This document shows positions 1 to 10,274 of a stretch of 10,274 nucleotides of DNA, in pieces (within the stretch, counting starts at the first letter, position 1; each line of letters starts with the position of its first letter). Below the pieces are notes generated by a model, which saw only the letters and a program-made list of their open reading frames with translations, did no database searches and was not told the origin of the DNA. Made by a program: the position numbers and the translations under genes. Where the stretch lies: the NCBI GenBank assembly GCA_048940645.1, contig JBHLOI010000089.1:1-10274 (forward strand). The letters are read 5' to 3'. This DNA comes from Promethearchaeota archaeon. GTDB taxonomy: Archaea; Asgardarchaeota; Lokiarchaeia; Sigyniarchaeales; SOKP01.

Positions 1-1443
1 CCATTGTTCCGAGAGTGTGTTACAGAAGAGGGGTTAAATCCTTATCTCTTTAATTTCGTTAATATTCGGGATCAGTGTACATGGGTGCATATGAAGCATC
101 CTAAAGAGGCGTTTGAAAAAGCAAAAGATCTTATAAGAATGGGAACAGCAAAAGCCGTAAAGCTCGAACCTTTAGATATGATTATGATAAAAATTAACCC
201 TGTTGCTTTAGTTATTGGTGGTGGGGTTACTGGAATGAGTTCAGCTCTTAGTTTGAGTCGACAGGGATTCAAGACTTACTTAATTGAAAAGGAAGACAAG
301 TTAGGTGGGAGATTAAATTCACTTTATAAGTTATTTCCTTATGAAATAGATTCAACAGAGTTTGTTGAGAAAATTATTAGTAATGTTAATAATGCGCAAA
401 ATTTAGAGGTTTATACTTCAGCAAAAGTGAAAAATGTTGAAGGTTTTGTGGGTAATTACGAAATAGAAGTTGAACAGAATGATAAAGTAATAAATTTAAC
501 CGCTGGAGCAATTATAGTCGCAGTGGGTTCATCATTACTGACACCTACGAATTTATTTGGATATGATGGAAAAGTGAGGATAACTCAATATGAATTAGAA
601 ACCAAATTAAAAAATAACGAAATTGAAGCTAAGGATATTGTAATGATACAATGTGTTGGTTCGCGTAATGATGAGAGACCTTATTGTTCGAGTGTTTGTT
701 GCATGACGGCTTTAAAGAATGCATTAATTATTAAGGATAAAATACCTTACGCTAATGTCATGATACTATTTCGGGACTTGTACACACCTGGAACGGAGTA
801 TGAAGAATATTATAGGAGAGCAAGAGAGAAAGGTATATTCTTTATAAAATATGATCCTAGTAGATTACCGAAAGTTGATGAAAATCAAGTTAAGGTTTAT
901 AATGAATATATAGGAGAAGAAATGACTTTCCCTTATGATCTTCTCGTATTAAGTACTCCTTTAATTGCTAATTATGACAATAAAGAACTTGCTCAACTAT
1001 TGAAAGTTCCTTTAGAAAGTAATAATTTTTTTTTAGAGGCGCACGTAAAATTAAAACCTAGTGATTTTGCCACAGATGGAGTATTTATTGGGGGATCAGC
1101 GAAGTGGCCGGTAGATATTACTGAAGCTATAACTCAAGGTTATGCTGCCGCTTCAAGGGCAAGCACTATTTTATCTCATGAGACAATTAAAGTAGAAGGT
1201 GCCACATCAAGCTTACCGGAATATAATAAGAATTTATGTTCAGGTTGTGAAGTTTGTATTAAAGTTTGTCCTTATCATGCTATAAAGAAGACTGAAAGCG
1301 ATGAGATAGAAATTATTGAAGCATTATGTAAAGGATGTGGCGTATGTGGAGCAACTTGTACAAATCAAGCAATTGTAATAAAGCATTTTACTGACCCACA
1401 AATCTTATCAGAAATTTTTGTACTTGGAGGTAAAGAAATTTGA
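1..1443 (+). CDS. hdrA: Heterodisulfide reductase subunit A family protein (FAD, Fe-S), 5'-truncated by the window edge
   Basis: The frame is open from base 1 (CCA TTG TTC = PLFRE..., aligning with PLFQE at 3781 of the downstream hdrA), so TTG at 4 is not the real start. Motifs: NIRDQCTWVH, Rossmann ALVIGGGVTG, QCVGSR...YCSSVCC...K, FFLEAHVKLKP, and two C-terminal CxxCxxCxxxC ferredoxin motifs. Confidence 0.95.
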   Translation, partial: PLFRECVTEEGLNPYLFNFVNIRDQCTWVHMKHPKEAFEKAKDLIRMGTAKAVKLEPLDMIMIKINPVALVIGGGVTGMSSALSLSRQGFKTYLIEKEDKLGGRLNSLYKLFPYEIDSTEFVEKIISNVNNAQNLEVYTSAKVKNVEGFVGNYEIEVEQNDKVINLTAGAIIVAVGSSLLTPTNLFGYDGKVRITQYELETKLKNNEIEAKDIVMIQCVGSRNDERPYCSSVCCMTALKNALIIKDKIPYANVMILFRDLYTPGTEYEEYYRRAREKGIFFIKYDPSRLPKVDENQVKVYNEYIGEEMTFPYDLLVLSTPLIANYDNKELAQLLKVPLESNNFFLEAHVKLKPSDFATDGVFIGGSAKWPVDITEAITQGYAAASRASTILSHETIKVEGATSSLPEYNKNLCSGCEVCIKVCPYHAIKKTESDEIEIIEALCKGCGVCGATCTNQAIVIKHFTDPQILSEIFVLGGKEI

Positions 1444-2204
1444 TGAGTTTTGAGCCTAAAATTTTAGGATTTTTATGTAATTGGTGCTCATATGCAGGAG
1501 CAGATTTAGCAGGAGTAAGTAGAGTTCAATATCCCCCAAATATTAGGGTAATTAGAGTTATGTGTAGTGGTCGTGTTGATCCCAAATTTATTTTAAAAGC
1601 ACTCCAAATCGGAATTGATGGAGTAATTGTTATGGGATGCCACCCTGGTGATTGTCATTATCTTGAAGGAAATTATGAAGCTGAAAAGAAATTTGAGATG
1701 GTTGAGAAATTTCTTAAATTTGTTAACTTAGATAAAAGAATAAGATTAGAATGGGTTTCAGCTTCTGAAGGTGTAAGATTTGGTGAAGTAGTTAAAGATT
1801 TTACAGAAAATATACGAAAATTGGGGCCTTCTCCTCTTAGTGGAGATCATATTGATGAAAAATTATTAGAAAAATTAATAGCGATTGAAATGGCAGCTAC
1901 AAGCAATAGGATTAGAGCCCTTATTGGGAGACAAAGAAAGATTACATCAGAAGAAAATACATATGGGGAAAAATATCCAGAGGAACAATTCAATAAATTA
2001 TTAGATCAAGCAATTAAAGATGAGTTTGAACGCCATTGTATTTTAGTCGCTTTAGAAAAAAATTCTAAATCCATTAAAGGTTTAGCAAAAGAATTAGATA
2101 TTGATCCAAGTATAGTATTAGAACATATATTAGTATTAAAGGTTCGAAGTCAAGTAGACTTTGGAGAAATTATTGGAAATACGCCTATTTTTATTCGATT
2201 ATAA
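1440..2204 (+). CDS. mvhD: MvhD/FlpD family [2Fe-2S] subunit with a ~120-aa C-terminal extension ending in a winged-HTH-like segment
   Basis: Motifs FLCNWCSYAGADLAG, RVMCSGRVDP, GCHPGDCHY, WVSASEG. The core ends at LGPSP (1821-1835). Start is TTG 1440 (7 nt after GGAGGTA at 1426-1432) or ATG 1443 (TGATG overlap). Confidence 0.92.
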   Translation: MMSFEPKILGFLCNWCSYAGADLAGVSRVQYPPNIRVIRVMCSGRVDPKFILKALQIGIDGVIVMGCHPGDCHYLEGNYEAEKKFEMVEKFLKFVNLDKRIRLEWVSASEGVRFGEVVKDFTENIRKLGPSPLSGDHIDEKLLEKLIAIEMAATSNRIRALIGRQRKITSEENTYGEKYPEEQFNKLLDQAIKDEFERHCILVALEKNSKSIKGLAKELDIDPSIVLEHILVLKVRSQVDFGEIIGNTPIFIRL

Positions 2205-2217
2205 GAGGGATAAATGG

Positions 2218-5200
2218 ATGGAAAAAGTAGGAGCTGTTATGGTTGTAGGTGCTGGTATTGGGGGATCCCAAGCAGCACTAGATTTAGCAGATTCAGGTTA
2301 TAAGGTTTATTTGGTTGAATCAAGCACTAGTATTGGCGGGGTAATGGCACAGCTAGATAAAACCTTCCCAACAAATGATTGTGCTATGTGTATTGTAAGC
2401 CCAAAATTAGTAGAAACTGGACGGCATCAAAATATAGACTTGAGTATTAATTGTAAAATTGAAGAGGTTAGTGGAGAGGCAGGGAATTTTATGGTTAAAG
2501 TATTAAAAAAAACACTATTTATAAATCCTGATATATGTACTGGCTGCGGAGTTTGTGGTCGTGAATGTCCTGTTGAAGCAATTGATATCTTTAATGAAGG
2601 CTTATCTAAATACGCTGCAACATCAGTTAAATATCCACAAGCAGTACCATTAGTATATGCTATTAATAAAGATTATTGTATCGGCTGTGGAATATGTCAA
2701 GGTGTTTGTAAAGCAAAAGCAGTAGAATATGAGAGAGAAGATGAAGAAGTAGATATAAATGTAGGAGCTATAATTTTAGCCCCAGGTTTCGACGAATATA
2801 TTCCAAAGGCAGCAAATTTGTATGGATATGGGAAGTATAAAAATGTAGTAACAAGTATAGAGTTTGAACGTATCTTAAGTGCGAGTGGGCCATATGCTGG
2901 TAGAGTCTTACGCCCTTCAGATGGTGATGTTCCAGAAAAAGTAGCATTTCTCCAATGCATTGGCTCTCGTGATTATACTGGAAATGGGCAACCTTATTGT
3001 TCTTCAGTATGCTGTATGTATACAGCTAAGGAAGCCGTTATTGCCCATGAGCATATGCATCAGATTAAGCCGACGATCTTTAGCATGGATGTAAGAGCAT
3101 ATGGAAAGGATTTTGATAAATACATTATTAGAGCCCAGGAAGAATATGGTGTCCAATACATAAGAAGTCGTATCTCATCTATTAAAGAAGTATCAGAAAC
3201 AAAGGATTTACGGATAAGATATGAAACTGAAGATGGAAAAGTAATGGAAGAAGATTTTCATTTGGTCGTCCTTGCAGTTGGATTAAATCCTCCTAATGAT
3301 GCAAAATATCTTGCTGAAAAGTTTGGTGTAGAATTAAATGAGTTTGGTTTTGCGAGAACTGAAAAATATAACCCCGTTCAAACATCAAAGCCGGGTGTTT
3401 TTACATGTGGAGCATTTTCATCACCTAAAGATATTCCTGATACAGTGACCCAAGCTAGTGCAGCTGCTGGTTGTGTTAATCAGCTTTTATATGAAAAACG
3501 AGGCACTTTAATAACAGAAAAAACATTACCTCCTGAAATTTTTGTGAATGGTCAACCGCCTAGAATTGGTGTATTTATCTGCCATTGTGGAATTAACATT
3601 GGAGGTTTTGTAGATGTTCCAGAAGTGACAAAATATGCGAGCACTCTCCCAAATGTAGTTATGACAGATCGTAATCTCTACACTTGTTCAGCAGATACTC
3701 AAACAATAATAAAAGAAAAAATAAAAGAGTATCATCTTAATCGTGTTATAGTTGCATCATGTACACCTAGAACCCATGAACCATTGTTTCAAGAAACTAT
3801 TAGAGAAGCTGGTTTAAACAGGTATTTATTTCAAATGGCAAATATTAGAGATCAATGTTCATGGGTACATATGAACGAGCCAGAGAAAGCTACCCAAAAA
3901 GCAAAAGATTTAGTAAGAATGGCAGTAAATAAAGCCAGAGAAATAGAGCCTATTGAAAGAATTAGATTACCAGTTACTTCTAAAGCTCTTGTTGTTGGAG
4001 GAGGAATAAGTGGTATGGTGGCGGCTGTTAATTTTGCTAGTCAAGAATATGAAACATTTCTAGTTGAAAAACAAGAAGAACTGGGAGGATTTGCCCGAAA
4101 TATATATCACACTCTTGAGGGAGGGAATGTTCAAGAATTCTTGGCTGATTTGATTAACAAAGTAAAATCGAATAAAACTATTCATACATATACAGATGCC
4201 GAAATTGAAAATATTGATGGTTATATTGGTAATTTTAAAACTTCAATTATTCACGGTAAGAATAAAGAAAGAGTGGAATTTGATCATGGAGTAGTTATTG
4301 TCGCAACAGGAGCAAAAGAATATCAACCTAAAGAATTTTTATTCGGACAAAATGAAAATGTAATCCTCCAGTCTGAATTTGAAAAGATGATAAACTCAGA
4401 CAATAAAATAAAGAATAAAAAATCAGTTGTAATGATTCAATGTGTAGGCTCGAGAAATGATGAACATCCTTATTGTAGTAAAATGTGTTGTGCTGAAGCA
4501 ATTAAGAACGCCCTATTAGCTAAAGAAAAAAATCCAGATGTGGAAATAACAGTTCTATTTCGAGATATTCGGACTTATGGATTTAAAGAAAAGTACTACC
4601 GAAAGGCACGCGAAGCAGGAATCATTTTCCTCCGGTATGATGAAGGTAATCCCCCTAAAGTAGTTCCAGAGGATTCAATATTAAAAATTGAGGTTTCAAC
4701 TCCAAGAAAAGAAAGAATCAACATTAACTCTGATCTATTGGTTCTAAGCGCTGGAATATATTCAGATAGAGAGGAAAATGAGGAGCTGGCCAAGATGTTA
4801 AAAGTTCCTCTTAATGATGATAATTTCTTTTTAGAAGCACATGTTAAGTTACGCCCGGTAGATTTTGCCACTGAAGGAGTATTTTTAGCAGGTTTAGCAC
4901 ATTGTCCCAAAACAATCGAAGATTCTATTGCGCAGGCGAATGCTGCAGTTTCAAGAGCCTGTACTATACTATCAAAAGATGAAATAGAGGCTGAAGGTAA
5001 AACTGCCATGATCCTTCCAGAACGCTGCATTGGATGTGGTATGTGCGTAGAAAATTGTGCTTATAATGCAATCGACTTAGTTGATGACCGTCGATTCGGA
5101 AGAATCGCTAAAATTAACCAAGCATTATGTAAGGGTTGCGGTGCTTGTTCAGGTAATTGTAGATGTGCTGCTATAGATGTATTAGGTTTCACGGGTGAAC

Positions 5201-5232
5201 AAGTATTTGCAATGATAACTGGGAGGTGCTAA
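2218..5232 (+). CDS. hdrA: Large two-module (tandem) HdrA-like flavo-iron-sulfur protein, 1004 aa
   Basis: Start moved to ATG 2218, which has SD-like AGAGGGA at 2204-2210 and avoids overlap with mvhD. Module 1: VVGAGIGG, LDKTFPTNDCAMCI, inserted 2x[4Fe-4S] ferredoxin, EFERILSASGP, QCIGSR..YCSSVCC. An internal HdrA N-terminal-type domain starts at 3556 (RIGVFICHCG, ASCTPRTHE, NIRDQC). Module 2 starts at ~3982: LVVGGGISG, QCVGSR..YCSKMCC, C-terminal 2x[4Fe-4S]. Confidence 0.95.
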   Translation: MEKVGAVMVVGAGIGGSQAALDLADSGYKVYLVESSTSIGGVMAQLDKTFPTNDCAMCIVSPKLVETGRHQNIDLSINCKIEEVSGEAGNFMVKVLKKTLFINPDICTGCGVCGRECPVEAIDIFNEGLSKYAATSVKYPQAVPLVYAINKDYCIGCGICQGVCKAKAVEYEREDEEVDINVGAIILAPGFDEYIPKAANLYGYGKYKNVVTSIEFERILSASGPYAGRVLRPSDGDVPEKVAFLQCIGSRDYTGNGQPYCSSVCCMYTAKEAVIAHEHMHQIKPTIFSMDVRAYGKDFDKYIIRAQEEYGVQYIRSRISSIKEVSETKDLRIRYETEDGKVMEEDFHLVVLAVGLNPPNDAKYLAEKFGVELNEFGFARTEKYNPVQTSKPGVFTCGAFSSPKDIPDTVTQASAAAGCVNQLLYEKRGTLITEKTLPPEIFVNGQPPRIGVFICHCGINIGGFVDVPEVTKYASTLPNVVMTDRNLYTCSADTQTIIKEKIKEYHLNRVIVASCTPRTHEPLFQETIREAGLNRYLFQMANIRDQCSWVHMNEPEKATQKAKDLVRMAVNKAREIEPIERIRLPVTSKALVVGGGISGMVAAVNFASQEYETFLVEKQEELGGFARNIYHTLEGGNVQEFLADLINKVKSNKTIHTYTDAEIENIDGYIGNFKTSIIHGKNKERVEFDHGVVIVATGAKEYQPKEFLFGQNENVILQSEFEKMINSDNKIKNKKSVVMIQCVGSRNDEHPYCSKMCCAEAIKNALLAKEKNPDVEITVLFRDIRTYGFKEKYYRKAREAGIIFLRYDEGNPPKVVPEDSILKIEVSTPRKERININSDLLVLSAGIYSDREENEELAKMLKVPLNDDNFFLEAHVKLRPVDFATEGVFLAGLAHCPKTIEDSIAQANAAVSRACTILSKDEIEAEGKTAMILPERCIGCGMCVENCAYNAIDLVDDRRFGRIAKINQALCKGCGACSGNCRCAAIDVLGFTGEQVFAMITGRC
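5222..5228 (+). promoter_or_regulatory. Shine-Dalgarno site of mvhD/flxD
   Basis: GGAGGTG lies 8 nt before ATG 5237. Confidence 0.75.
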
Positions 5233-5236
5233 TAAG

Positions 5237-5689
5237 ATGGCAACGCAAACAAAACAAGAAGAAAACCTAAATGATGGATGGGAACCCAAAATTTTAGCAT
5301 TTTTATGTAATTGGTGTTCTTATGCCGGAGCAGATTTAGCGGGGGTTAGTAGGATTCAATACCCTCCTACTATTAGGGTTGTAAGAGTTCCCTGTTCTGG
5401 TAGAGTAAGCCCTTATTTTATTATTAAGAGTTTAATGGATGGTTGGGATGGGGTTGTTGTTTCGGGATGCCATCCTGGAGATTGCCATTATCTTACAGGA
5501 AATTTAGTAGCAAGAAGACGATTTGCGATTTTAAAAGAATTGTTAGAATTTTTCGGTATAGAACCAGGAAGAATTAATTTTATGTGGGCTTCTGCTGCTG
5601 AGGGTGAACGTTTTGCCAACTTAATTAAAAAGGCGACTAAAATTGTTAAACAGCTAGGACCGAATAAAAAATTTGAAAAGAAATGGTGA
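5237..5689 (+). CDS. mvhD: MvhD/FlxD family [2Fe-2S] subunit
   Basis: Motifs FLCNWCSYAGADLAG, RVPCSGRV, GCHPGDCHY, WASAAEG. SD GGAGGTG at 5222-5228. It sits in the flxD position of the hdrA-flxDCBA order. Confidence 0.95.
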   Translation: MATQTKQEENLNDGWEPKILAFLCNWCSYAGADLAGVSRIQYPPTIRVVRVPCSGRVSPYFIIKSLMDGWDGVVVSGCHPGDCHYLTGNLVARRRFAILKELLEFFGIEPGRINFMWASAAEGERFANLIKKATKIVKQLGPNKKFEKKW

Positions 5690-6714
5690 TGATAGTGGGA
5701 ATTGAAACAGAGAATAGGGAAATTGAAAATTCAATGAGAGAAACTGCTCGATCTCTACTCAAAGAGAAAAAAGTAGATGTAATTATTGGATATAAAAGCG
5801 GAACTGTTCCCTTAAGTTCAGCACCAATAATGATAACAAAAGAAGAAGATGTTGAAAAACTAATTTGGAATAATTTATGTTATGTTAATTTAGCTAAGTA
5901 TTTGGTTCCTCGAATTCCTCAACTAGTTGATCCTGAAAAAGGAAATTTAAAAGTAGGAATAGTATCTAAAGGTTGTGTTGGTAGAGCATTAATTCATTTA
6001 GCAGTCGAGAACCAAATTAATCTTGAAAATATCAAAATGATTGGAATTCCTTGTAATGGTATAATCAATCGAAAAAGAATTGAAAAGGAGATTGGTGAAA
6101 AAGAAATTTTAGAGATTTTTGCCTCTGGTAATGATATAGTTGTGAAGGGAAAGAATTTTGAACAAAAGTTTTCTTTTGATGAGTATATCAATGAATTATG
6201 TAAAGTATGCAAAGTTAAATCTCCTCCTGTACTCGCAGCATTAGCGGAAAATTGTGTTGGTGAATGCCAAGAAATAAGCTCCATAGACGATAATTTTGAA
6301 GACTTAATGGAATTTGAATCGAAAACAACTGAAGAGAAATGGGATTATATTAAAGATACATTAGAGACATGCACTAGATGTTATGCCTGTAGAGAGGCAT
6401 GTCCTATGTGCTATTGTAATTTATGTTTTGTAGATCAAAATAAACCTATCTGGTTTGAAAAAACAACAGAAATATCTGATATAATAGCATTTCATCTCGT
6501 TCGTGCGATGCATTTAGCAGGTCGCTGTGTAGCATGTGGAGCTTGTAGTAGTGTCTGTCCAATGGGAATTGATTTAAATTTAATTACAAGAAAATTGGAG
6601 AAAATCGTAAAAGAAAGATTTAATTTTACATCTGGCATTGATTCCGAGAAAATGGCTCCTATGATGGATTTTAGCATGGATGATGCAGAAGAATTTATGT
6701 TAGAAGAAGATTAA
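5683..6714 (+). CDS. flxC: FlxC-like iron-sulfur protein (FdhB/FrhB-related N-terminal part plus 4Fe-4S dicluster)
   Basis: Motifs CTRCYACREACPMCYCNLCF, FHLVRAMHLAGRCVACGACSSVCP, VDVIIGY, KGC, IGIPC. Located between mvhD and an AsrA-like gene. Start is uncertain: ATG 5683, ATG 5689, or GTG 5695 after GGTGA at 5685-5689. Confidence 0.82.
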   Translation: MVMIVGIETENREIENSMRETARSLLKEKKVDVIIGYKSGTVPLSSAPIMITKEEDVEKLIWNNLCYVNLAKYLVPRIPQLVDPEKGNLKVGIVSKGCVGRALIHLAVENQINLENIKMIGIPCNGIINRKRIEKEIGEKEILEIFASGNDIVVKGKNFEQKFSFDEYINELCKVCKVKSPPVLAALAENCVGECQEISSIDDNFEDLMEFESKTTEEKWDYIKDTLETCTRCYACREACPMCYCNLCFVDQNKPIWFEKTTEISDIIAFHLVRAMHLAGRCVACGACSSVCPMGIDLNLITRKLEKIVKERFNFTSGIDSEKMAPMMDFSMDDAEEFMLEED

Positions 6715-6716
6715 AA

Positions 6717-6723
6717 AGGTGAT
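6717..6723 (+). promoter_or_regulatory. Shine-Dalgarno site of flxB
   Basis: AGGTGAT in the flxC-flxB gap, complementary to the 16S rRNA 3' end. Confidence 0.7.
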
Positions 6724-6746
6724 TAAAAATAGAGCAAAAAGTATTA

Positions 6747-7790
6747 ATGAAAAATGAAATAGGGAAGTTATATATTGAATTGAGTGAAGAATTCAATTTC
6801 TATGCACCAATTAAGGAAAAGGGTAATTTAGTATTTAAAAAAATATTAAATCCTGACGATATTGTATTAGATTACTTCAATTCTAAGGTACCTCCAAAAG
6901 AAATATTGTTTCCAAAAATGGAAGTACTTTTTGAATATAAAACTGACGGTAAGGATGTTACTGAGATTATTGAAAGAACTGATTTAGATGAGAAAAATAT
7001 AATATTTGGCATAAGACCATGTGATGCACATAGTTTTGTTCTTTTAGAAAACTTTTTTGCTTTTGGAGATATTCAAGATGAGATTTTTTTGAAGAAAAGA
7101 GCAAATTCTATAGTTATTGGAATTGGTTGTAATGCTCCAAAAAGTACATGTTTTTGTACCTCAATAGAGGGACATCCGTTTATGAAAGATGATATGGATA
7201 TATTCTTAGTAGACTTAGGTGACAAATACTTAGTTGAAGGAGTAAGTGAAAAAGGAAAGGAATTAATGAACAGATTGAAATGGCTTTCTGATGCCAAAAA
7301 ACAAGACATAAATAAGGCAGAAGAATTATCCAAACAGGCAGAAGAATCATTTGAAACTAAACTGGATTTAAAAGATATAGATAAAATACTTGATCCTAAT
7401 TTTGAGCATCCTATTTGGGAAGAAATTAGTGAAATTTGCATAGGATGTGGAACATGTTCCTTCTTATGTCCTACATGTACTTGTTTTGATGTAATTGATG
7501 AAAATGATCATTATAATAACAAAGGACGACGAATTAGGATATGGGATACATGTCAGTTTTGCTTATATTCACTTCATACAAGTGGTCATAATCCACGAGA
7601 GAGTTGTATCGAGCGTTGTAGAAATAGAATTTTACATAAATTTTGCTATTATCCTGAAAATTATAATATGTTAGGATGTGTTGGATGTGGTCGATGCATT
7701 CAACTCTGCCCTGTCAATAACGATCTTAGGGCAATTATTGAAAAAGTCAATAATATTAAAGAAGAAAAGGAGGAGAAAGTGAGTGCCTAA
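6747..7790 (+). CDS. flxB: FlxB / AsrA / sulfhydrogenase beta-like 4Fe-4S protein
   Basis: Motifs PPKEILFP, FGIRPCD, CxxxxxxCFC, CIGCGTCSFLCPTCTCFD, RxWDTC, HKF, GCVGCGRCIQLCP. The first ATG is 6747, but the true start may be ATA 6729 (see findings). Confidence 0.85.
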   Translation: MKNEIGKLYIELSEEFNFYAPIKEKGNLVFKKILNPDDIVLDYFNSKVPPKEILFPKMEVLFEYKTDGKDVTEIIERTDLDEKNIIFGIRPCDAHSFVLLENFFAFGDIQDEIFLKKRANSIVIGIGCNAPKSTCFCTSIEGHPFMKDDMDIFLVDLGDKYLVEGVSEKGKELMNRLKWLSDAKKQDINKAEELSKQAEESFETKLDLKDIDKILDPNFEHPIWEEISEICIGCGTCSFLCPTCTCFDVIDENDHYNNKGRRIRIWDTCQFCLYSLHTSGHNPRESCIERCRNRILHKFCYYPENYNMLGCVGCGRCIQLCPVNNDLRAIIEKVNNIKEEKEEKVSA

Positions 7791-8622
7791 TCCTTATATT
7801 CCTATGTTAACTACTGTTAAAAATATTGTATCAGAAAATAAAGTAAATGATGTTAAGACAATAGAATTAGAATTTAAAAAAGAAGAAAACTACAAAAATT
7901 TTGATTATATACCAGGGCAATTTGCTGAAATCAGCTTAATTGGTAAGGGAGAGTGTCCAATTGGTATTGCTTCCTCACCTACGGAGGAAGGTTCAATTAA
8001 ATTCACGATTAAAAAAATGGGTACGGTAACTACAGGTTTTCATAATTGTGAAGTTGGTGATACTGTGGGCGTCAGAGGCCCTTGTGGAAATGGATGGCCA
8101 ATTGAACAAATGAAAGGAAAAAATATTGTTGTGATTGGTGGTGGATTTGCTTTTTCAACTTTACGTTCACTAGTGGTCTATTTATTGGATGAGAAATACA
8201 GAAAAGACTATAAAAATATTACTGTAATTTATGGTAATCGTGATTCTGGAGAAGTGCTTTATCGAGATATTTTAGAGGAATGGAAAAAAAGGGACGATAT
8301 TAATGTTATACTAACTATTGACCGGGAAGAAGACGGATGGACTGAAAAAGTAGGATTTGTTGCTCCCGTAGTTAAAGAAGTTGGTCCATCTCCCAATAAT
8401 GCTATCGCTGTAGTGTGTGGTCCCCCAATCATGATTAAAACTACCATTGCTGTGTTAGAAGAATTGAATTTCAAAGATGAACAAATATTAAATTCATTAG
8501 AAATGAGAATGAAATGCGGAATTGGTAAATGTGGAAGATGTAATATTGGTAATAAATATGTATGTGTTGACGGTCCAGTTTTTTCCTTGGCAGAGCTCAA
8601 AAAGATGCCAAGTGAGTATTAA
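7783..8622 (+). CDS. flxA: FlxA / AsrB / sulfhydrogenase gamma-like FAD/NAD(P)-binding oxidoreductase with C-terminal [2Fe-2S]
   Basis: Motifs PGQF, GVRGPCGNGW, GGGFAFSTLRS, VCGPPIM, LEMRMKCGIGKCGRC...VCVDGPVF. GTG start lies 7 nt after GGAGGAG (7769-7775) and overlaps the end of flxB by 8 nt. Confidence 0.9.
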   Translation: MPNPYIPMLTTVKNIVSENKVNDVKTIELEFKKEENYKNFDYIPGQFAEISLIGKGECPIGIASSPTEEGSIKFTIKKMGTVTTGFHNCEVGDTVGVRGPCGNGWPIEQMKGKNIVVIGGGFAFSTLRSLVVYLLDEKYRKDYKNITVIYGNRDSGEVLYRDILEEWKKRDDINVILTIDREEDGWTEKVGFVAPVVKEVGPSPNNAIAVVCGPPIMIKTTIAVLEELNFKDEQILNSLEMRMKCGIGKCGRCNIGNKYVCVDGPVFSLAELKKMPSEY

Positions 8623-8666
8623 ATATATTATTAAAAAATTATAAAAAATGAAGAAAGGTATAAAAA

Positions 8667-9785
8667 ATGGTTGAAGAAGTCTTTCCTAAATCTTTTGAAG
8701 ATTTGATAAAGGATGTCCATGAACAAGGTATTTGTGGAGAGTGTGGAGGTTGTGTTAGCTTTTGTTCGGCTCATGAGATAAAAGCTATTGAAATGTTTGA
8801 ATCAGGTCCTCCAAGATACTATAATAAGGATAATTGTCTAAAATGTGGTATTTGCTATTTAGTTTGTCCGCAGACGCATGTTTTAGATGATCAATTAAAT
8901 AAAAGATATGACTATAAAATATCTATCGGGAATTGGAGAAAAATTTCTTCAAGTAAAGCAACTTCAGAAGAGATTCGGAAAAATGCGACGGATGGAGGAG
9001 CAGTTACGGCAATTTTATTATATTTAATGGAAAAAAATTTAATAAATGGAGCAATTGTCTCAAAAAAGGAAGGTCCATTTAGTAGAATCCCTTTCTTTGC
9101 TACAACAAAAGAAGAATTAATAGAAGCTGCAGGTTCTCACTATGATATCTCTCATGGAGTTACAAGTTTAGAGAAGTATAATTCATTTGTTCCTACCATC
9201 ACTAAATTGAAAGCTGTTGTGAGTTCGGATGCAATGAACATCGCTGTTGTTGGTACGCCATGTCAGATAATGTCAATTAGAAAAATGCAAGAATTAAGCA
9301 TTTTACCAGCTCATATTGTGAAATACACATTAGGTTTATTCTGTAATTTGAATTTCTCTTTTAATGCCGAAGCTCGAAAGAATTTAGAAGATAAATTTGA
9401 TTTTTCATTTGATGATGTAGAGAGATTAAATATTAAAGAAAATTTAATTGTACAGCTTAAAAATAATCAAATGAAATATATTGATTTTAAGGATATTCAC
9501 GAGTTTGCTAGACCAGCATGCTTTGCTTGTCGAGATTTTTCCAATGTTTATGCTGATATCTCGTTTGGAGGGTTGGGTTCTAAAGATGGGTACACAACAG
9601 CAATAATCAGAACTCAAATCGGGGAAGATATCTATAATAAAGCGTTAAAAAAAGGATATTTAGAAGAGCCATTAGAAGTAAATACTTCTGTTAAAAAATC
9701 TGAAATTTTAGCTAAAGTTATAAGCTTTGGTAGAAGAAAATTCGAAAGATATAAAAATTCTTTAAAAGAAAGAAGAAAAGCTTAA
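8667..9785 (+). CDS. Coenzyme F420 hydrogenase/dehydrogenase beta subunit family (FrhB/FpoF-like) with N-terminal 2x[4Fe-4S] ferredoxin domain
   Basis: N-terminal CGECGGCVSFC and CLKCGICYLVCP, followed by FrhB-family motifs DGGAVTAIL, VVGTPCQI, LGLFC, CFACRDF, ADISFGGLG, TAIIRT. Confidence 0.88.
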   Translation: MVEEVFPKSFEDLIKDVHEQGICGECGGCVSFCSAHEIKAIEMFESGPPRYYNKDNCLKCGICYLVCPQTHVLDDQLNKRYDYKISIGNWRKISSSKATSEEIRKNATDGGAVTAILLYLMEKNLINGAIVSKKEGPFSRIPFFATTKEELIEAAGSHYDISHGVTSLEKYNSFVPTITKLKAVVSSDAMNIAVVGTPCQIMSIRKMQELSILPAHIVKYTLGLFCNLNFSFNAEARKNLEDKFDFSFDDVERLNIKENLIVQLKNNQMKYIDFKDIHEFARPACFACRDFSNVYADISFGGLGSKDGYTTAIIRTQIGEDIYNKALKKGYLEEPLEVNTSVKKSEILAKVISFGRRKFERYKNSLKERRKA

Positions 9786-9800
9786 GTAATTAAATATTAA

Positions 9801-9845
9801 AATTTTTTATAATTCTATTCTTATCTATAAATCTCAGTTTTTCTT
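9801..9845 (+). terminator. Possible archaeal-type oligo-T terminator region
   Basis: T6 tract at 9803-9808 and TTTTTCTT at 9838-9845 just after the last stop codon, with no GC hairpin. Weak evidence given the AT-rich background. Confidence 0.3.
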
Positions 9846-10245
9846 ATACGGTAATTTTATAAGTTCATATTTTGAATCTCGATAATTTTTTGATTTCAGG
9901 TTATGGAATCCGATAATTTTTTCGGATGAAATTTTCGGGATCGATCATAATAATAGGAAAAAATAGAAGAAATTGATCACAAAAATATTAATATTAACAT
10001 TAATAAGTAATTATAATTATTTTTTTGTTGGACAATTTTGTAGGTTATTAACTATAGGAAATGATAATAAATTACATGATTTTTATCAAAATTCGATAAT
10101 TTGACTTCGCTTCGTAATTGATTTTCGCGATTTTGATCTTTTTCGATCGCATTATTCAGACAAATTTTTTGAAAACGATAATCTTGGAGTTATAAATTAT
10201 TGTGATCGAAAATTTTTTTGTGTTTTTATTGTCGGAATCGATCAT
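9838..10245. repeat. Array of ~11 degenerate 18-bp quasi-palindromic boxes (ATTWTCG-N4-CGATAAT) with 31-32 bp period
   Basis: Right half-sites start at 9849, 9880, 9911, 9942; 10030, 10062, 10094; 10144, 10176, 10207, 10239. Boxes 9931-9948 and 10228-10245 are 16/18 identical. Confidence 0.75.
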
Positions 10246-10249
10246 TGCA

Positions 10250-10257
10250 TTTAAATA
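10250..10257 (+). promoter_or_regulatory. Candidate archaeal TATA box for a gene beyond the window
   Basis: TTTAAATA matches the TTTAWATA consensus and lies 4 nt after the last palindromic box. The downstream gene is not visible. Confidence 0.45.
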
Positions 10258-10274
10258 TTTTAATTTCTTTTAAA

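Follow-up and report, generated by a model that had tools for sequence, protein, structure and literature searches.

We identified an array of eleven 18-bp boxes with the consensus ATTWTCG-N4-CGATAAT, all on the + strand and grouped in runs of four, three and four, at the end of the window (the entire 10,274-bp contig, C45, of the source genome, G000). The array lies directly upstream of a conserved TATA-like box, is the only one of its kind in the genome, and probably constitutes a promoter-upstream operator, that is, an activating or switch region, for a single sequence-specific, dimeric and oligomerising DNA-binding protein. This reading follows from the combination of a palindromic box, three-turn phasing that puts the boxes on one DNA face, groups of three to four boxes, a fixed promoter-proximal box and a single copy in the genome, which together point to a dedicated operator. 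A preliminary description of the window had listed the eleven boxes with their 31-32 bp spacing and 4/3/4 grouping, all of which were present, and had offered two readings, a control region occupied by several oligomers and a centromere-like or origin iteron array. The first of these gained support from the placement of the array, from the recurrence of box positions and 31-bp phasing in relatives, and from a layout matching that of archaeal Lrp-type activators, whereas the second was abandoned for the reasons given below.

Boxes, runs and phasing

Each box is built as 7-4-7, with two heptameric halves around a short centre (Table 1). Column statistics for the 11 boxes gave ~10.5 bits for the right half, CGATAAT, with G in 11 of 11 boxes and C in 9 of 11, and ~3.8 bits for the left half, TTwTsG; the linker columns were near background, in agreement with the earlier statement that the sequence between boxes is not conserved. 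Left-half matches to ATTATCG at offset −11 numbered 49 of 77, compared to 24.6 ± 4.2 for random anchors (a value reached by 0 of 20,000), so the palindromic left half is weak but real. The best-kept bases of the motif are C and G, within a spacer of 23% GC and in opposition to the AT mutation bias. The spacer contains 17 CG dinucleotides (8.2 expected) and 7 GATC motifs (1.6 expected), an excess that is a by-product of the box motif, and T-tracts follow many of the boxes. The longest open frame in the spacer does not exceed 49 aa, which argues against a gene fragment. The boxes of run 2 are weaker than the others, yet their position is conserved, and, measured upstream from the TATA-like box, the run 3 boxes are centred at 13, 45, 76 and 108 bp. 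Between runs, the gaps between half-site starts are 88 and 50 bp, neither of which is a multiple of 31.5; runs 1 and 3 are offset by 295 bp, which in arithmetic terms agrees with the rough phase match proposed in the preliminary description, and helical phase is not kept from run to run.

Table 1. Features of the array and its surroundings (window positions; the last row refers to the joined sequence)
Feature	Position	Strand	Remarks
frhB-like gene	8667-9785	+	Pfam FrhB_FdhB_N and FrhB_FdhB_C; closes the upstream hdrA-mvhD-flx-like cluster
Run 1, four boxes	9838-9855, 9869-9886, 9900-9917, 9931-9948	+	exactly 31 bp apart; right halves start at 9849, 9880, 9911, 9942 (spacings 31, 31, 31)
Gap, AT-rich	9949-10018		no scoring box in a position-weight matrix scan
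Run 2, three boxes	10019-10036, 10051-10068, 10082-10100	+	right halves start at 10030, 10062, 10094 (spacings 32, 32); third box has a 5-bp centre
Run 3, four boxes	10133-10150, 10165-10182, 10196-10213, 10228-10245	+	promoter-proximal module, spaced 32/31/32; right halves start at 10144, 10176, 10207, 10239 (spacings 32, 31, 32)
77 bp identical to the contig C10 end in reverse complement	10198-10274	+	joins the array to the hdrD-like operon
Proximal box ATTGTCG-gaat-CGATCAT	10228-10245	+	ends 4 bp before the TATA-like box
TATA-like box TTTAAATA	10250-10257	+	putative TATA box of the hdrD-like operon
Shine-Dalgarno-like AAGGTGA	~10352		followed by the HdrD-like gene

In a k-mer autocorrelation of the 489-bp spacer, the top two peaks were at lags 31 and 32 (z = 3.3-4.7), as anticipated in the preliminary description, and the lag-32 peaks for k = 3 and k = 4 were alone in exceeding the 95% maximum of the shuffles. 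Because hand-picked sites could bias the test, we added an objective test based on heptamers with at most one mismatch to CGATAAT or CGATCAT. On the + strand, 9 such heptamers were present, whereas Markov-1 shuffles averaged 2.9 (P = 0.002). Six pairs of these heptamers were separated by 31 or 32 bp; none of 20,000 shuffles and none of 200,000 random placements gave as many (P < 5 × 10−6). Among neighbouring boxes, 8 of the 10 spacings were 31 or 32 bp.

Genome-wide, CGAT[AC]AT occurs at a density of 0.27 per kb, counted over both strands, and other windows hold at most 3 copies. A position-weight scan detected no second cluster of three or more sites in the 3.8-Mb assembly, and of the strong single matches elsewhere in G000, 65 of 82 fall in coding sequence, as chance predicts. 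This is the sole cluster in the genome and the motif is not enriched in five relatives, which points to a local operator. Its exact 30-mer was absent from the metagenome contigs searched, and across 42 genomes of the genus a two-site pattern was no more frequent than its reversed control and revealed no arrays. A three-site pattern matched 85 times among genome contigs and at least 120 times among metagenome contigs; almost all of these matches were perfect tandem repeats of 16 or 32 bp, for the most part from Bacteroidales and unrelated to the array, and the few matches with non-conserved linkers had three sites only. Tandem arrays that are long, near-perfect and built of a 32-bp (or 16-bp) unit were seen in many Bacteroidales and termite-gut contigs, one of them with 26 motif-bearing copies over ~1 kb; the period of these arrays is not a multiple of three.

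Genomic setting and conservation among relatives

The assembly of G000 comprises 3.83 Mb in 126 contigs (30% GC, 89.6% complete). Positions 1-9785 of the window hold eight redox genes, all in one orientation, namely an hdrA-like gene, a C-terminally extended mvhD, a double hdrA, an mvhD, two genes of the ferredoxin type, one for a flavoprotein and the frhB-like gene, the orthologues of which in relatives show 82% identity. The spacer begins at the stop codon of the frhB-like gene and, as the terminal 489 bp of the contig, is non-coding. Within the assembly, the terminal 77 bp have a single match, the end of contig C10, and the exact length of this overlap is what a k-mer overlap at a break in the assembly graph could produce. 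This overlap places the array between the frhB-like gene and an HdrD-like/HdrA/MvhD operon, and the join, based on the overlap together with synteny in two relatives, is supported by the identical order of frhB-like gene, spacer (540-560 bp) and hdrD-like gene in the MAGs 9R3_44 and DZ2M.159. Both MAGs are from Promethearchaeota, so that the host group is that of the Lokiarchaeota-type Asgard archaea, in agreement with archaeal ribosomal and RNase P genes seen in a congener. The HdrD-like protein contains a 4Fe-4S dicluster domain and two CCG domains, and its gene is followed by two hdrA-like genes, an extended mvhD, a double hdrA, mvhD and another double hdrA. Beyond the end of this operon, after a 200-bp gap, the joined sequence carries an Lrp/AsnC gene, separated from the array by the 12.5 kb of the operon. 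Of the downstream gene types named in the preliminary description (Lrp/AsnC, cdc6/orc1, parA/segAB, integrase), an Lrp/AsnC gene is thus present, at the operon end; the first gene, however, is hdrD-like, and none of the other types was found in the joined 26 kb.

The array is flanked by two paralogous Hdr-like clusters (window 1-9785 and C10:3397-15479), which share hdrA, extended mvhD, double hdrA, mvhD and other genes, and the complete two-cluster layout is also kept in 9R3_44. At the start of the hdrD-like gene, both in G000 (~10352-10370 of the joined sequence; C10:15599 region) and in 9R3_44 (L320:1375-1400), there is no ATG, GTG or TTG between an in-frame TGA, which falls inside the Shine-Dalgarno-like AAGGTGA, and the first CxxCxxC. 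In both genomes ATT-AT(T/A)-TCA stands directly 3' of the Shine-Dalgarno-like sequence, which suggests a conserved ATT/ATA start codon; in G006 and DZ2M.159 the start codon is ATG.

We found the array in four species, G000, G006 (bin12), 9R3_44 and DZ2M.159. The HdrD proteins of the latter two are 75% and 68% identical to that of G000, respectively. The sequence TTTAAATA is invariant in G000, G006 and 9R3_44 and reads TTTAAATG in DZ2M.159, and this invariance suggests that it functions as the TATA box of the hdrD-like operon. In 4 of 4 species, the proximal box is followed by four bases and then by TTTAAAT. The box itself is a perfect palindrome in 9R3_44 (ATGATCG-agat-CGATCAT), near-perfect in DZ2M.159 (ATTATCG-gatc-CGATCAT), and reads TTTATCG-tttt-CGATCAT in G006; in a three-species alignment, the block TCGATCATT-N-CATTTAAATA is invariant, while its flanks diverge. 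Relative to the TATA-like box, half-sites start at 11 bp in 4 of 4 species, at 42-43 bp in 3 of 4, at 73-74 bp in 2 of 4, and at 154-156 bp, which in G000 falls in run 2, in 3 of 4, and two-sided boxes are centred at 13 and 44-45 bp in all four. The 31-bp phasing of G000 recurs in the three other species, so the spacing is conserved in related genomes.

Comparison of G000 positions 10010-10274 to 9R3_44 gave an essentially gap-free alignment, with site spacings of 32/50/32/31/32 in G000 and 31/51/32/31/31 in 9R3_44. The run 2 boxes share 11-14 of 18 positions per box, again without gaps, and half-sites are conserved at 71% compared to 60% for linkers, a modest difference. DZ2M.159 carries three strong, near-perfect palindromes exactly 31 bp apart. 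The number of boxes ranges from 2-3 in G006 and at least 3 in DZ2M.159 to 11 in G000, which is an unusually large number, and the three species form a natural series for the growth of cooperative operator arrays. The boxes are absent from four other relatives with an hdrD-like gene (62-74% identity), in which the upstream contexts differ. In three further genomes (G018, G010 and G046), the second operon is absent and the frhB-like gene is directly followed by the Lrp/AsnC gene; a convergent gene of 304-324 aa comes after these two. The sister species G013 has 93% nucleotide identity and is collinear with C10:973-5734, and the frhB/array region is absent from its assembly. Upstream of cluster 1 in 9R3_44 (L327:5900-6000), TGATCAT-A-TTTAAATAT stands before a small open frame rich in Cys; this combination of GATCAT and TTTAAATA resembles the module of proximal box and TATA-like box only loosely, and its spacing is different.

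Mode of action and alternative explanations

We infer that the boxes are bound by a protein that oligomerises and wraps the DNA. Each 18-bp box (AT-N-ATCG, 4 bp, CGAT-N-AT) would seat one dimer, neighbouring dimers would touch each other and bend or wrap the DNA, and each run of three or four boxes would accommodate a single octamer-like assembly. At 4 bp from the TATA-like box, the proximal dimer would lie over the expected BRE position and could contact TBP/TFB, either helping or hindering their binding, while the upstream boxes may load more dimers cooperatively, at about one octamer-like unit per run; the assembly would then set the transcription of the downstream HdrD-like/HdrA/MvhD operon. 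Activation and repression appear to us about equally probable, the sign of the effect being judged from position only. A more far-reaching version, in which three separate oligomers of an uncharacterised Asgard regulator nucleate on the array and wrap ~400 bp as an enhancer-like switch that acts at a distance on the electron-bifurcation (Hdr-like) operon, or, as a variant, an Hdr-like complex docks via the winged-helix domain of MvhD and acts as a self-regulating redox sensor, we regard as improbable.

Phased boxes could also be the remnant of a neutrally decaying, functionless tandem repeat (minisatellite) of 31-32 bp, with the shared heptamer surviving from the ancestral unit, a reading in keeping with the contig break at the array. 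Run 1 in particular is not alignable to 9R3_44 and is specific to G000: it is missing from the closest comparable relative, Tandem Repeats Finder reported a period of 31 with 2.2 copies and 79% matches at 9852-9920, and the units of repeat family D1 are 63-71% identical over 41 nt. Run 1 therefore looks like a recent tandem duplication in the G000 lineage. Runs 2 and 3 are conserved in relatives and align without gaps to a species in which HdrD is only 75% identical. Decay from a common unit is also at odds with conservation concentrated in the 7 + 7 columns of the boxes, with the retention of C and G in the face of the AT mutation bias, with box positions relative to the TATA-like box that recur in up to four species, and with the near-perfect palindromes of DZ2M.159. 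Similarity between whole units is residual and restricted to run 1, and true 32-bp tandem repeats elsewhere look quite different. We consider a minisatellite origin of the array unlikely.

An equally unlikely explanation is that the array docks or positions proteins of the chromatin or nucleoid (Asgard histone dimers, or a protein resembling Alba or Lrs14) rather than a gene-specific regulator. An archaeal histone dimer covers ~30 bp, close to the period of the array, and the T-tracts after many boxes would suit such a protein. What is conserved, however, is a specific CG-centred palindrome and not a pattern of bendability; the array occurs once in the genome, whereas proteins of the chromatin act throughout it; and the offset of the proximal box from the TATA-like box is an exact and invariant 4 bp.

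The boxes might instead function in RNA, if read-through transcripts from the frhB-like gene formed hairpins with 7-bp stems and 4-nt loops for processing, attenuation or protein binding. All of the boxes are inverted repeats in a single orientation on the transcribed strand, and some of those in 9R3_44 and DZ2M.159 would give perfect 7-bp stems with tetraloops. Most left halves in G000, however, are too degenerate for pairing, it is the sequence rather than the complementarity that is conserved, and the element stops at the conserved TATA-like box and not at the gene start. A search of the spacer against Rfam gave no match of note, scans for bacterial promoters and terminators gave nothing informative, and the T-runs just after the frhB-like gene look like archaeal termination signals. 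Hairpins of this kind are thus a very unlikely basis for the conservation.

Also very unlikely, in our assessment, is redox-dependent autoregulation by the Hdr-like complex itself, docking via a winged-helix C-terminal domain of the extended MvhD (254-260 aa). Copies of MvhD with this domain (HTH_5, E = 1 × 10−5 to 7.5 × 10−5; PF0610-like_N) are encoded in both flanking clusters of G000 and 9R3_44, there is a weak PDB match to an ArsR-family regulator, and a search recovered the domain from 3 of 4 array-positive genomes and from 0 of 2 array-negative ones. Against this, the domain has a pI of 4.8-6.9, compared to a pI of 10 for the Lrp HTH, its putative recognition helix lacks a basic residue, DZ2M.159 has strong boxes and no detectable copy, and the G006 operon is without one. 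The winged-helix fusion was accordingly rejected as the binder, being acidic or neutral and undetected in DZ2M.159, and its neutral to acidic character suggests a module for protein contacts rather than a DNA binder. The 254-aa extended MvhD (window 1440-2204; L235:9973-10737) ends in this winged-helix-like domain (HTH_5 / PF0610-like_N), and its tail gave weak ArsR, MarR and PF0610-type signals.

Finally, a replication origin or partition (centromere-like) site made of iterons, the second proposal of the preliminary description, is extremely unlikely: it would account for the many direct-orientation repeats, the AT-rich stretch at 9949-10018 that could unwind and the single occurrence in the genome, but orc1/cdc6, parA, segAB and integrase genes are absent from the joined 26 kb, the neighbours are all Hdr, Flx or Frh-type redox genes plus one Lrp gene, the cumulative GC skew climbs steadily across the window without an inflection, the repeats show no inverted arrangement about the AT-rich stretch, in four species the element goes with a promoter, just two or three boxes being retained in G006, and the chromosomal context is conserved across species.

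Known operators and candidate binders

Archaeal Lrp regulators bind boxes of 13-17 bp spaced by two or three helical turns, additional upstream sites aid oligomer binding, and Ss-LrpB wraps ~100 bp of DNA around three dimers; in the activators Ptr2, LysM and Ss-LrpB, one dimer site occupies a tightly constrained position, a few bp upstream of the BRE (PMC2995911). The sites of Ptr2 of Methanocaldococcus jannaschii and of LysM and Ss-LrpB of Sulfolobus resemble the array in their imperfect inverted-repeat boxes, there bound by dimers, in their centre-to-centre spacing of two or three turns, in a core box placed upstream of the BRE/TATA by a few bp (putative in the case of the array) and in extra boxes further upstream (PMC2995911; PMC3597646). 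The array differs from them in that its box measures 18 bp and has a conserved CG beside the centre, in that it has eleven boxes in three runs compared to two to five, and in that the adjacent Lrp gene has no matching box upstream of itself; its host is an Asgard archaeon. The Lrp-type likeness noted in the preliminary description thus stands with respect to spacing and the position of the core box (PMC2995911). A box of the same kind before the regulator's own gene, as in autoregulation, is frequent in this class without being universal; the promoters of the neighbouring Lrp orthogroup contain no 7-4-7 box. Because the box is 18 bp long and no matching box lies upstream of the nearby Lrp gene, we do not claim membership in the Lrp/AsnC sites, and put the chance that the binder is of Lrp/AsnC type at somewhat less than even.

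Bacterial Lrp arrays (E. coli pap and ilvIH) and the octameric Lrp/FL11 proteins that wrap DNA offer a further parallel, with several sites on one DNA face at intervals of about three turns and three or four sites per group, there per oligomer. The array is set apart from the bacterial examples by the archaeal basal machinery (TBP/TFB) and by a motif unrelated to the E. coli Lrp consensus. In E. coli pap, GATC motifs lie inside the Lrp sites, and the spacer of the array is likewise enriched in GATC; the array shows no sign of methylation switching.

A resemblance to the Fur box extends to the half-site, which includes GATAAT, and to some boxes of the form ATTATCA-N4-TGATAAT; the genome encodes a Fur-family protein, and the target operon is rich in Fe-S proteins. 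In the Fur box, however, the hexamers are contiguous (7-1-7 or 6-6-1-6; 19-bp box), whereas in the array they are 6 bp apart within a box and the boxes recur every 31 bp. No array-like box was found near the Fur-family gene, and with no related boxes nearby and a different geometry, the Fur-family protein was rejected as a candidate.

The dedicated operator that we favour would act on an Hdr-like operon that is probably important for the energy metabolism of Lokiarchaeota-type cells. In the literature searched, including the passages of a 2026 Asgard review retrieved by keyword, we found no regulator-operator pair in Asgard archaea. The locus provides a defined and conserved candidate operator, in which 18-bp palindromes are phased at 31 bp and the proximal one keeps a fixed distance of 4 bp to the TATA-like box, and is a good but conventional candidate for the first regulator-operator pair in the Lokiarchaeota-type Asgard group, since its architecture is already used by archaeal Lrp-type activators and is therefore unsurprising in kind. 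It can be used as a concrete bait in regulator screening by DNA-affinity capture or gel shift.

Among the possible binders, the genome contains 16 Lrp/AsnC matches, one of which is the gene at the end of the hdr operon. This neighbouring Lrp was rejected as the binder: the 7-4-7 box is present in 0 of 36 upstream regions of its orthogroup, the strict motif is not enriched there (3 of 34), adjacency to the hdr operon is found only in G000 and its sister G013, and the orthogroup occurs in 40 of 42 congeners, whether boxes are present or not. The upstream regions of the orthogroup have features of their own. TCGA is present in 30 of 34 compared to 36% of the background, and CGA(N)A2-5T in 24 of 34 compared to 17%. 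These promoter elements are CG-centred and A-rich, examples being the 14-bp palindrome ATTTTTCGAAAAAT and ATTTCG-aaaaa-CGATAAA, and are probably the orthogroup's own operators. Upstream of the Lrp gene, G013 keeps TTTTTCGAAAAAAT where G000 has TTTTTCTAAAAAAT.
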